Source: Klebsiella phage KP2025. Taken from it: 64,000 nucleotides of DNA. The DNA is taken from the sequence record PP919962.1; one strand, given 5' to 3'. A program made the translations under genes and the position numbers. Shown piece by piece: positions 37,476-51,924 of this stretch (its first letter is position 1; every line of letters begins with the position of its first letter). The notes under the pieces were generated by a model that was not told where the DNA came from, did no database searches, and was given only the letters and a program-made list of their open reading frames with translations.

Positions 37476-38060
37476 CCTGATATTATCTGATATTTTAAAA
37501 ATTTTATTTTTAGAATAAAGGGGGCGGGGGTTCAGATTTCCAGAGCCTCCAGCTTTCTAATCTAAATTACTACGTATTCTTAATAAATGATAACCGAATG
37601 TTCTCCCTACTTAAAACCAATTTGGAGCGAACATTTTTTGTTGCATAAACAGGTCATAAAACATAACCCTACCTTAGTTATAGAACAAATCAAAGGAAAA
37701 GTTTCTAAAATTATTTAAAGTTTCTACAGATTTCTTTGAACTTTTACCTAAAAACAAAATTTAAAATTTCCCTAAATTATTTAAACTTTTTCTGTATCTT
37801 ACTACAGAAAAAACGTAAACTAAAATTTAAAATTTCCAAAAAATTCCCCAATTATTAAAAGTTTTTCAACTTTTCGATCTGCATTTTTCCAAAAGCAAAA
37901 TTTAGAATTCTCTAAAAATTTCCAGATGCATATGATAATCATTATTATTTGCAAATGAGAATCATTCCCATTTAAAAAGTTGAATGAGAATCATTCTCAT
38001 CTACAAACCGAAATGATTCTCATTCGCATCTGCGGAATGACAGGCAGGTTCGGTGTTTGT
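37476..38060. repeat. AT-rich non-coding island with direct repeats and palindromes (ori / regulator-site candidate)
   Basis: AAAATTTAAAATTTCC at 37757 and 37822, variant at 37897; Fur-box-like TGATAATCATTATTAT at 37933; ATGAGAAT-C-ATTCTCAT perfect palindrome at 37984-38000; related half-sites at 37955 and 38012. Confidence 0.6.
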
Positions 38061-38063
38061 CTC
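38042..38063 (-). repeat. 22-nt repeat GAGACAAACACCGAACCTGCCT (inverted partner of 49354..49375)
   Basis: exact 22/22 match in opposite orientation, both followed by AATGAGAAT. Confidence 0.7.
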
Positions 38064-44178: not shown

Positions 44179-44260
44179 TACAGCGTTTTCTATAGTGAGC
44201 CATACAAACACCAGGGAGCACCATAAAAACCGCTTAGAACGCATTACAGGAGCTTAGACA

Positions 44261-49353: not shown

Positions 49354-49375
49354 GAGACAAACACCGAACCTGCCT
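49354..49375 (+). repeat. 22-nt repeat GAGACAAACACCGAACCTGCCT (inverted partner of 38042..38063)
   Basis: exact match; second ACCGAACCTGG half-copy 20 nt downstream. Confidence 0.7.
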
Positions 49376-49661
49376 AGCATTCAGGGAAGCTAACCGAACC
49401 TGGACGCCTCCCTTCAAATGAGAATTACTCGCAACAAACATCGTGCCAACTTTACTTTCTAAATGAGAAAAATTCTTATTAGTGAGATCTATTTGTTTAT
49501 GAGCTAGGGTATTGCCAGGACACAAAAGCGCTTAAAATCGATTCTAGAGCGTTTTAAAGGTATGTATGTTTATACAGGACTTGAAAATAAATTTGACAAA
49601 GATTTTATAGTGTGCTATTCGCATATGATTGTTTTCTTTACAGTTCTTTACAAATCTACTC

Positions 49662-49738: not shown

Positions 49739-50107
49739 ATGACTATCATCAATCTGAATACTACTATTAAAGGTAAAGATTTTGGCGGCGTAGTAGATCA
49801 TGATCCGATGTGGTCACTTTCTGTTTTCAAAGGTGATTTAATCGATGTTGTAACCATTGACAGCGGGTCAGATGATTATAAGTGTGAAATTCATCTTACA
49901 AACTGGTACACTGGCAAAGTTTACGCCCTGGATCGCGTGATCATCGGTCGAATCGAAACATTAGAGGACGAAGAAACCGGAGAAACCTTTGATTATTATA
50001 TCAATAGCACTAACCGCGCAGAACGCTTGTTAGAGAAGATGAAAGAAAAAGGAACTATTGATTTATCTCACTGGGTGGACATTACAAACGATCCAGCCTA
50101 CAAATAA
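49739..50107 (+). CDS. hypothetical protein (122 aa)
   Basis: ORF. Confidence 0.55.
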   Translation: MTIINLNTTIKGKDFGGVVDHDPMWSLSVFKGDLIDVVTIDSGSDDYKCEIHLTNWYTGKVYALDRVIIGRIETLEDEETGETFDYYINSTNRAERLLEKMKEKGTIDLSHWVDITNDPAYK

Positions 50108-50118
50108 AACACCATTTC

Positions 50119-50147
50119 AAAGGGGCGCACAAAGCGCCCTTTCTTTT
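50119..50147 (+). terminator. rho-independent terminator AAAGGGGCGC-ACAAA-GCGCCCTTT + CTTTTT
   Basis: 10-bp stem and T run. Confidence 0.65.
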
Positions 50148-51670
50148 TGCCTATCGTTTAATGATAGCTTTTACCGATTGAAATCACTCACAGCAGAAAA
50201 GTGAATAAATCGCGTTATGAGGTTTTCTAAGCAAGGTTGACTAACTACCAGGGGCAAACGGTAAGCCGCTTAGAATGGCTTACAGGAGCTTTAAAGGGCA
50301 TAGCCACTATCTAAATAATCAATAAGTCCATAAATCTAACGATCTAATCAATAATGATAATCAATCTCATATATCCGTGATTAATTATGCAGAATATTGC
50401 ATAGTGTGATAGTGAGAATCATTTACAATCAAAGTAACAATTGACAATTTATCCAATCATAAACAATCAAATAATAAATAGATAAATAGTTATCTTGCTA
50501 ATCTATGCACCTGATATCATTTCAATAATTAACAATAACACAATAAAACAATCAACTAGTCAATAATAAGCAATGAAACTATTATTAACACTATTAATCT
50601 ACAATTCATTCTTACAATAATAATCTATGAAATAATTAGCAAAGAATGTATTAGCAAGCCTACGCGGGAAACGTAGGCTGCTAATAATAACACAACTACA
50701 CCACCTCATTTCGGAATAATCCCTGATTATCCCTCATGTGATTATGTAGCTTGCAATGCTTGCAAGCGTAATGATGTATGTGATACATCATAACACTCAC
50801 AATCATTACGTGTGTTATTATTAGCATATAAAGTAATTAACATTCTAACAGAATCATTCATTGTGAAACAATTAGCACACTATCTATTTGCGGAGGAATT
50901 ATTGAGTGAATAACGAAAATAATTCTATAGCTAATGATTAATGATAGAACTATTACGCAGCGAAAATATTACACGCTGAAGCGTGGAATGTTGAGCATTA
51001 ATGAGAATAAGAATTAATATTATTCGGGCGAGCAAATGCCCACGAAGTGGGCTATTGTTGAGCCACTTCTCTTAAAAGAGAAATTTTTAGGAATTATCTT
51101 GATTTTCGAGCCGTTTGATGCTATGCGCAGCATACCACTGTTCACTTATACAGTGGATTTGTCATGAGAATCGTTATCAGTCGCCTTTTGTGGCAATTTG
51201 GCACCTTGTAAACACATGTTTATTAATGCCAAACTATTGATTTATAAGGATTTATTGTCAGTTTATCGTGATGGGCATGGAATACGGTCAATCTTTGACC
51301 AAAAGTGTCGTAAGTTATTGAATGATATTAAGAATGAGAATGATTCGCATTGATATTTGGGACTCGCGGAAATTTGAAAATGGGGGTGCCCGAAAATCGC
51401 GTTAAGCACCTCTCGCAAGCGAGCCATATTACCGCCAACATATTGATATTATTGACATTTCTTTGCCAAATAGGGGGTGGCTTAAAAATTCCGGATATAT
51501 GGGAGAAATTTTGTAGTTTTTGTGGTAAATTGTATGTAAAATAATCAGCAATAATAATGTTTAATTGATAGATATTTCCGATGATAATCCTATGTAAATA
51601 GGGTAGCTTTTTATTTCCGGGTGTTGTAGGATGATTGTCATGAAAGATTGCTATGTGTAAGGAGAGAAAG
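50148..51670. other. 1.5-kb AT-rich non-coding island lacking ORFs, dense in short palindromes and hairpins
   Basis: hairpins AGCCTACG-CGGGAAA-CGTAGGCT (50657), GCTTGCAA-TG-CTTGCAAGC (50749), ATGATGTAT-GT-GATACATCAT (50771), CACGC-TGAA-GCGTG (50984), GCCCAC-GAAG-TGGGC (51037), GGTCAA-TCT-TTGACC (51286); GAGAATGATTCGCATTG at 51345; no ORF over 60 aa. Confidence 0.5.
51599..51618 (+). repeat. partial copy C of conserved element (TAGGGTAGCTTTTTATTTCC)
   Basis: shares the TAGGGTAGC-T-run core with 29326 and 60766. Confidence 0.4.
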
Positions 51671-51766
51671 ATGGAAGCGTTAATGATACTTGGTGCTATA
51701 GTTGTGTTGCTGCTGGTACTATATTTTGCTCCAAGAGATGGTTCAGACTGGGATACATATTTCTAA
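51671..51766 (+). CDS. small membrane peptide (31 aa) missed by ORF track
   Basis: strong RBS AAGGAGAGAAAGATG. Confidence 0.4.
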   Translation: MEALMILGAIVVLLLVLYFAPRDGSDWDTYF

Positions 51767-51780
51767 GAGAGGAGAGTGCA

Positions 51781-51924
51781 ATGACGTATAGAACACGTAC
51801 AGAATGGTTGAAGAAAGGGTTGTATGTCATTCCTCATGCAAAGCCCACTGCTAAGACGAATAAAGGTGAGAGCTTGTTTAAAAGATCTCAGGTGCAATAT
51901 AGTTTCGAAGGGAGAGAGTCATGA
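51781..51924 (+). CDS. small basic protein (47 aa) missed by ORF track
   Basis: GAGAGGAGAGTGCAATG RBS. Confidence 0.4.
   Translation: MTYRTRTEWLKKGLYVIPHAKPTAKTNKGESLFKRSQVQYSFEGRES

Follow-up and report, generated by a model that had tools for sequence, protein, structure and literature searches.

The window analyzed here, a stretch of 64,000 nucleotides from Klebsiella phage KP2025 (sequence record PP919962.1), contains a long non-coding region, hereafter the island, which follows the last gene of the right arm (49739-50107), a homolog of phi92 gp248 with 66% protein identity, and ends at the first gene of the left arm. With 1242 nt, the interval 50108-51349 is the longest stretch of the window free of open reading frames (ORFs) of at least 60 aa, the runner-up being a gap of 581 nt at 37476-38056. 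An earlier note on this DNA, made from its letters alone, had described the island as 1.5 kb lacking any ORF above 60 aa and as exceptional in this genome; its rank as the largest ORF-free stretch stands, and the size has to be amended for a single TTG-initiated ORF of 64 aa that intrudes at 51350-51544. The closest records by megablast of the island are those of the Stephanstirmvirinae Klebsiella phages KP13-26 (94%), FKP3 and phi1_175008 (91-94% identity), and patchy matches of 70-80% reach around 130 phi92-like and phAPEC8-like phages of E. coli. Judged by these similarities, the window derives from a phi92-like Klebsiella phage of the Stephanstirmvirinae. As detailed below, the island very probably joins both termini of a linear phage genome with short direct terminal repeats (DTRs); such a junction is a known kind of feature in phi92-type genomes and is hidden here by a permuted assembly. 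In addition, it harbors a structured element of ~180 nt at 50646-50829, on the minus strand.

The position of the genome ends is indicated by two related genomes. In phi92 (NC_023693), repeat_region features are annotated at 1-343 and 148270-148612, corresponding to an exact 343-bp DTR at both ends, with gp248 ending 1.1 kb before the right repeat and the first gene (at 699) starting 355 bp after the left repeat. In the linear record PQ360875 (phi1_175008), both termini likewise consist of an exact 343-bp repeat. The two records start at the equivalent of window position 51061, and their last bases map to 51403 (PQ360875) and 51404 (phi92); the window sequence delimited in this way aligns end to end with the PQ360875 repeat (95%) and in patches with the phi92 repeat. 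The FKP3 record holds an extra 317-bp DTR copy equivalent to window 51074-51390, and short DTRs of 317 bp have been determined for this phage by PhageTerm (PMC11663894). A DTR of 342 bp was obtained by PhageTerm for BME3 (PMC12210895), a 459-bp repeat is located in a non-coding region of LL12 (PMC6658697), an ORF-free "non-coding" box is drawn in the rV5 paper (PMC3606486), and the Stephanstirmvirinae have been described as ending in DTRs (PMC12695924).

The window contains a single copy of the DTR, as expected of a collapsed and re-opened assembly, and the genome ends would thus look internal because the two repeat copies were collapsed in the assembly and the sequence was opened elsewhere. 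Moreover, all relatives examined, phi92-like and phAPEC8-like phages among them, have retained 1.5-2.0 kb of non-coding DNA between the gp248 homolog and the small early genes, and a counterpart gap is present in rV5/LL12. The suggestion in the earlier note that the island might hold a packaging or terminus site is supported, since the repeats of phi92 and phi1_175008, by homology, and the published PhageTerm result for FKP3 place the ends inside the island.

In an alignment of nine phages representing three clades, the repeat boundaries fall in the most conserved words of the island. TGTTGAGC at the left boundary and CGTTAAGCAC at the right boundary are invariant in all nine phages, and the wider right-boundary word AAATCGCGTTAAGCAC is present in eight of them, phAPEC8 differing just upstream. 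In phi92, the two ends share one register of the heptamer GTTR^AGC, namely GTTG^AGC at the left end and GTTA^AGC at the right end, and we estimate the chance of such a heptamer match at a fixed register to be ~1 in 8,000 under uniform base frequencies. This shared cut-site heptamer appears to be undescribed, no description having been found in non-exhaustive literature searches. Just left of the homolog of position 51056, KP13-26 and FKP3 carry an insertion of ~70 bp that starts with TGTTGAGCAC and ends with TGTTGAGCCAC, and therefore have the left boundary word in two tandem copies. The DTR boundaries of LL12, as defined by PhageTerm, lack the GTTRAGC word. The hairpin at 51038-51052 (GCCCAC-GAA-GTGGGC) stops 8 nt short of the left cut site, and phAPEC8 has ATCGC-GTA-GCGAT at this place; the C-GAA-G loop closure of the former resembles a very stable DNA mini-hairpin motif.

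Several observations weigh against the interpretation of the island as a genome-end junction or limit its precision. The ends of KP2025 are placed by homology only, and the FKP3 repeat delimited by PhageTerm is 13 bp shorter on each side, so that the exact cut positions are uncertain by ~13 bp. Beyond the heptamer, the likeness of the two boundaries is not significant in most phages (local-alignment p 0.02-0.75). In addition, the heptamer alone is too short to specify cutting, and the presence of a directly oriented motif at each boundary does not in itself account for the duplication of the repeat. Finally, no match to a strong sigma-70 promoter was found in the leader of the window, which is therefore only presumed to be an early-promoter region. 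This leader shows a conservation of 0.74-0.89 over 51398-51458, its layout is the same in phi92, and some E. coli relatives have a good promoter at the homologous place, as read from the alignment.

Table 1. Features of the island and related sites in the window (positions are those of the window).
Feature	Position	Strand	Description
Right-arm non-coding part of the island	50108-51060		
Intrinsic terminator	50120-50147	+	9-bp stem plus T-run (50120-50142, then CTTTTTG); found by scan
Conserved post-terminator block	50148-50299	+	Holds AAATCGCGTTA (50207-50217) and the orphan leader (50266-50291)
AT-rich core	50300-50645	+	23-26% G+C; dense in same-strand CAAT/AATAAT; block 50348-50420 conserved across genera
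Palindrome TATGCA-N6-TGCATA	50386-50403		Within the AT-rich core
Structured element	50646-50829	-	~180 nt
Fold of the structured element		-	Outer 14-bp stem around a long hairpin, an 8-bp stem and a 9-bp hairpin; then a G+C-rich 3' hairpin
Spacer between structured element and DTR	50830-51060	.	Poorly conserved (conservation profile); hairpins 50972-50985 and 51038-51052
Left boundary TGTTG^AGCC	51056-51064	+	Predicted left end at base 51061
DTR (collapsed copy)	51061-51404	+	344 bp by the phi92 register; by that of PQ360875, 343 bp with the end at 51403
Hairpins inside the DTR	51067-51082, 51135-51156, 51286-51300		
Right boundary AAATCGCGTTA^AGCACCTC	51394-51412	+	Predicted right end at base 51404 (or 51403)
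Left-arm leader	51405-51671	+	From DTR to first gene (start 51672, ribosome-binding site AAGGAG); contains conserved block ATATTGATATTATTGAC
ATGAKAATNATTMTCAT family, island copies	50354-50370, 50411-50423, 51164-51180, 51334-51350		Last two inside the DTR
ATGAKAATNATTMTCAT family, sites named in the window	21556, 37932-38029, 43218, 43790, 47958, 49463, 50354, 51164, 51334		

Between the AT-rich core and the repeat, the structured element forms a block that is conserved even in Phapecoctavirus, and its nested inverted repeats covary between clades. Using RNAalifold on 12 distinct homologs, the minus strand yielded 53 pairs, 14 of them compensatory, with 4 broken cells and -66.7 kcal/mol, compared to 46 pairs, 12 compensatory, and -50.9 kcal/mol for the plus strand. 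In each of the 12 homologs the minus strand folds 17-24 kcal/mol better than its complement (z of -8 to -13 versus -6 to -7.6). With 26 distinct homologs, 99.5% of the cells are paired, 15 pairs are changed on both sides, and the covariation score amounts to 0.251, the controls yielding 0.100 after shuffling (0/500) and no more than 0.059 after sliding. The 26-homolog alignment was fitted to the model; the same helices emerged from an independent RNAalifold analysis of MAFFT alignments. In the minus-strand reading, G·U occurs in 13 pair columns and A·C in none. Hairpin H4 has the same predicted structure on either strand and therefore provides an unbiased count; here the corresponding numbers are 5 and 0 columns. 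Moreover, one helix can form on the minus strand only: in this helix, a distal segment pairs with the centre of the invariant palindrome GCTTGCAA-N3-TTGCAAGC, and the three "loop" bases of the palindrome covary with this distal segment.

These results strongly support that the element is selected for base pairing and is a structured single strand, either RNA or single-stranded DNA, in line with the earlier note, which had considered structured RNAs here. The functional single strand is assigned to the minus strand because of the G·U-not-A·C bias, the better folding and the covarying minus-only helix. A covariance model built for the element finds exactly one strong copy (134-185 bits) per related genome or metagenome contig, and a scan of IMG/VR with GCTTGCAA-N3/4-TTGCAAGCG returned 31 hits, mostly chance matches, with 4 relevant contigs. 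Rfam 15 gave no match at gathering score anywhere in the window, the best E-values within 50000-51800 being 1.6-8.4, and a scan of the window for tRNAs and tmRNAs found none. Given the absence of an Rfam match and of a description in non-exhaustive literature searches, the element appears to be undescribed.

A weak and remote structural counterpart of the element is present in rV5/LL12. The 2.6-kb non-coding gap of rV5 contains a weak model hit of 24 bits (E ~2e-5 by rough calibration; L065 5738-5952), which folds independently into the same architecture (-90 kcal/mol, z -9.1). In LL12, the same hit (L066 2135-2348) is located 210 bp from the PhageTerm-defined repeat, on the strand opposite to the neighboring gene block, and reads away from the repeat. 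The geometry in the window is the same, the element lying 232 bp from position 51061 on the minus strand and the neighboring genes on the plus strand.

Two further observations concern the element itself. The words ATTAGC, GCTAAT and ATTAGC (50651-50656, 50680-50685 and 50820-50825) allow two mutually exclusive pairings, either an extension of the 3' hairpin or the outer stem, and this may constitute a conformational switch. In addition, phi92-like E. coli phages (L007 2117-2163, L008 2112-2173 and L002, left of the element) have three to five tandem 17-nt repeats (minus reading GTATGAAATGATTACT) directly next to the element, and these repeats are annotated as repeat_region in inny and muut; in the window, this repeat is found only as two degenerate copies ~54 nt apart.

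With respect to composition, the island is AT-rich as the earlier note had stated, with 23-26% G+C at 50300-50600 versus ~41% for the window. The short repeats mentioned there are likewise enriched in the island, with 14 copies of AATAAT (3.2 expected) and 22 of CAAT (12.8 expected); the CAAT spacings cluster at 7-13 nt, and no helical periodicity could be established. All six hairpins that had been listed are present (50657-50679, 50749-50767, 50771-50791, 50972-50985, 51038-51052 and 51286-51300). Overall, the island contains 10 perfect hairpins with a stem of at least 6 bp versus 3.7 expected (p ~0.013), and 3 with a stem of at least 8 bp versus 0.33 expected (p ~0.01). The earlier note had also considered a second origin here; among the features expected of a bacterial-type replication origin, an AT-rich tract is present in the window, repeats are short and degenerate, and no DnaA box was found in the island.

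No conserved in-frame ORF was found in the island by comparison with relatives. Conservation across the island is patchy and motif-like, shows no codon periodicity and is interrupted by frameshifting indels. This also applies to the 64-aa ORF at 51350-51544: compared to E. coli relatives, its mismatches are distributed as 0.30/0.33/0.29 over the three codon positions, and three 1-nt indels separate it from phi92. We therefore rejected this ORF as coding, though E. coli phages have homologous ORFs.

The GAGAATGATTCGCATTG site, which the earlier note had placed at 51345, is present at 51336-51352. It belongs to a palindrome family, ATGAKAATNATTMTCAT (core AATGA-N3-TCATT), of which the window has 22 matches versus 2.6 expected. 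The core of this family is the centre of the Fur-box consensus; ATGAGAATCATTCTCAT, rather than that consensus, is the form most often encountered in the window. At 50350-50368, a candidate binding site for Fur or a phage protein agrees with the Fur box GATAATGATAATCATTATC in 16 of 19 positions. In phi92-like E. coli phages, AATGATAATCATTATC, a 16-nt run identical to the Fur consensus, is found inside the terminal repeat (L001/L002).

The same palindrome family is encountered in the second-largest ORF-free gap of the window (37476-38056), which holds an array of four palindromes at 37932, 37955, 37984 and 38013, spaced by 23-29 bp. At least one palindrome of this array (37932-38029) fills the 17-nt spacer between -35-like and -10-like hexamers, and the gap also holds three AAAATTTAAAATTTCC-type words. 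A cluster of regulated promoters may reside in this gap, or it may serve as a cis-acting region of another kind. At 38035-38063, a 29-nt sequence, GAATGACAGGCAGGTTCGGTGTTTGTCTC, has an inverted copy 11.3 kb away at 49354-49382 (at least 20 nt exact, ~27/29 by eye); the two copies could form an antisense pair or share a protein site.

At the right-arm flank, the terminator that had been noted before the island was found by our scan (Table 1), and its hairpin is kept in all nine aligned phages; mean identity to E. coli phages is ~0.7 over 50108-50228. AAATCGCGTTA, the word closing the terminal repeat (51394-51404), recurs exactly ~100 nt past the stop of the last gene, and this upstream copy is conserved in E. 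coli phages as ATCGCG(G/T)TAT. By our own estimate, ~0.2-0.3 such 11-mer repeats are expected by chance within 1.5 kb, which makes this recurrence unremarkable. The orphan ribosome-binding leader described in the earlier note is real, with a spacer of N4 instead of N6, the N6 pattern giving no match: CCGCTTAGAA-N4-TTACAGGAGCTT at 50266-50291 matches 44230-44255, the leader of gene 44261. The duplication extends to ~45 nt (ACCAGGG...CCGCTTAGAA-N4-TTACAGGAGCTT; positions 44210-44260 and 50248-50295), and both copies follow a terminator, at ~50 nt (44230) and ~120 nt (50266), respectively. In KP13-26, the island leader has the spacer CGCA, which is the same as in the 44230 copy of the window and hints at an exchange between the copies.

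How the element acts can be explained in several ways. In our view, it most likely functions as a small structured RNA whose transcription proceeds inward, in the direction leading away from the DTR, and we infer a role in replication priming or genome-end processing. In its specific form, namely a minus-strand gene for a small non-coding RNA which is transcribed inward from near the DTR and has a trans-acting or replication-priming role, this explanation has in our judgment an even chance of being correct; it refines the genome-end explanation of the island and is compatible with it. It is favored by the predominance of G·U over A·C, both overall and within H4, by the greater stability of the minus strand in every homolog of the 12-member set, and by the one covarying helix that only this strand can form. 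Furthermore, the AT-rich tract follows the element in the direction of transcription, as in RNA-primed origins, and extended -10-like words are found just upstream on the minus strand in the window (TGTTAGAAT) and in phAPEC8-like phages. What weighs against an RNA is that neither a conserved sigma-70 promoter nor an intrinsic terminator for it was found near the element, its 3' hairpin included, that a deletion in relative L036 sets the candidate -10 word against the outer stem, and that literature searches yielded no usable transcriptome data on these phages. Moreover, the strand bias does not prove RNA because G·T wobble is also tolerated in single-stranded DNA. The element and the AT-rich tract might accordingly work as DNA, the minus strand folding when it becomes single-stranded during replication or concatemer processing and serving possibly as a priming signal, as an origin or as a snap-back structure that duplicates the terminal repeat. 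We regard this as a possible if rather doubtful explanation. It would account for the distance to the DTR, fixed at ~210-230 bp in two subfamilies, for the adjoining tract of 23-26% G+C, and for the several hairpin loops of 3 nt; repeated words, including the 17-nt tandem repeats beside the element in phi92-like phages, suggest iterons. Chung, Nardone and Hinkle are said to have reported in 1990 that T7 uses a hairpin beside its right-end repeat in concatemer processing. The lack of a DnaA box in the island and of an established helical periodicity of the CAAT words argues against a function as DNA, and a covarying fold of five helices is more elaborate than a snap-back repeat requires.

Two other explanations were considered. 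The inverted repeats could, with no folded single strand involved, be only double-stranded sites to which dimeric proteins bind (for instance phage regulators, the small subunit of the terminase or host Fur), as suggested by the invariant arms of the GCTTGCAA-N3-TTGCAAGC palindrome, by the recurrence of TTATTAGC-type words in direct orientation in KP13-26, FKP3 and Tr1, and by the over-representation of Fur-box-like palindromes in the window. This is unlikely, as long-range, non-palindromic helices (the outer stem and helix 2) covary, as do the three central bases of the invariant palindrome with a distant segment, and as a strict G·U-not-A·C asymmetry would be meaningless for double-stranded sites. 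Far less probable still is the deletion scar considered in the earlier note, in which the island would consist of decayed genes and the orphan leader would be a relic of a lost gene. The 26-nt leader has a good ribosome-binding site, duplicates that of gene 44261 and has no ORF behind it, as such a relic would. However, it is ORF-less in all four Klebsiella relatives, the patchy, motif-like conservation of the island is devoid of codon periodicity and tolerates frameshifting indels, and the subfamily has preserved both the size and the position of the gap, which has its counterpart in rV5/LL12. The alignment with related phages that the earlier note had proposed as a check for genes in this interval found it non-coding in every relative examined, and we dismiss the deletion scar because each of them keeps the gap at this position.

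Returning to the genome-end junction, we envisage that the terminase would cut replicated concatemers during packaging at both conserved GTTR^AGC sites, which are separated by 343-344 bp, and that the repeat between the cut sites would be duplicated, so that each virion DNA would carry it at both ends. The left end would then bring the leader and the small early genes into the cell, and the right arm would offer cis-acting signals instead of genes, namely the CAAT/AATAAT tract, the Fur-box-like operator-type palindromes and the ~180-nt element. As a more speculative extension, which we put forward with considerable reservation, rV5/phi92-like myoviruses might carry a new structured RNA of ~170-230 nt on the strand opposite to the adjacent genes, at a fixed ~210-230 bp from the right-end repeat, that would be transcribed inward into the AT-rich tract and be needed for replication or end formation. 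If this were true, the RNA of the element, which might for instance prime an origin or assist concatemer processing as a cofactor, would represent a new class of cis- or trans-acting phage RNA tied to DTR genome ends.

Taken as the start and end of the genome (51061 and 51403/4), the island would correct the permuted assembly as well as the spurious small ORFs annotated at this place in related records, and the end position is relevant to the engineering and rebooting of such therapeutic Klebsiella and E. coli phages. For a group with unstudied packaging and replication signals, two handles are provided: the conserved GTTR^AGC word at both cut sites, and the ~180-nt element, which covaries, is strand-specific and keeps a fixed distance from the repeat in two subfamilies. 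Should the element prove to be an RNA or to serve as a signal in replication or packaging, the long non-coding terminal region, an empty box in drawings ever since the genome paper on rV5, would have its first defined cis-acting function.

Comparison with known systems places these features in context. RNA-primed origins, as exemplified by T4 oriF/oriG and ColE1 RNA II, offer an analogy for the element, whose putative transcript would read into a very AT-rich, easily unwound tract; the likeness is one of arrangement only. The packaging RNA (pRNA) of phi29 (174 nt, encoded near the genome end) is similar in size and is likewise structured and located a few hundred bases from a genome end. It differs from the element in that no sequence or structure match was found (Rfam not significant), in that the ends of phi29 are protein-primed and have no DTR, and in that nothing here points to a role of the element in the packaging motor. 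In T7, the concatemer junction contains a terminal repeat of 160 bp, which is cut at fixed sites and duplicated in packaging. T7 is thus alike in outline, with a short exact DTR, fixed ends and non-coding flanks with short repeated words, and also in having early promoters by the left repeat and inverted repeats by the right-end repeat. In contrast to T7, the present case concerns a myovirus of 140-150 kb with apparently host-type promoters and no sequence relationship to T7, and the same heptamer at both boundaries is not a T7 feature. Compared to phi92, nucleotide identity is limited to ~70-83%, in patches, and the window has a single collapsed copy of the repeat; phi92-like E. coli phages, moreover, have a near-perfect Fur-box word in the repeat and 17-nt tandem repeats by the element, of which the window has weaker versions. 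The organization is nonetheless the same in the two phages: the last gene (the gp248 homolog), ~1 kb of non-coding DNA, the 343-bp repeat and a leader of ~0.3 kb precede small early genes on the same strand, with conserved blocks on both sides of the repeat and the boundary words TGTTG^AGCC and CGCGTTA^AGCAC in both.

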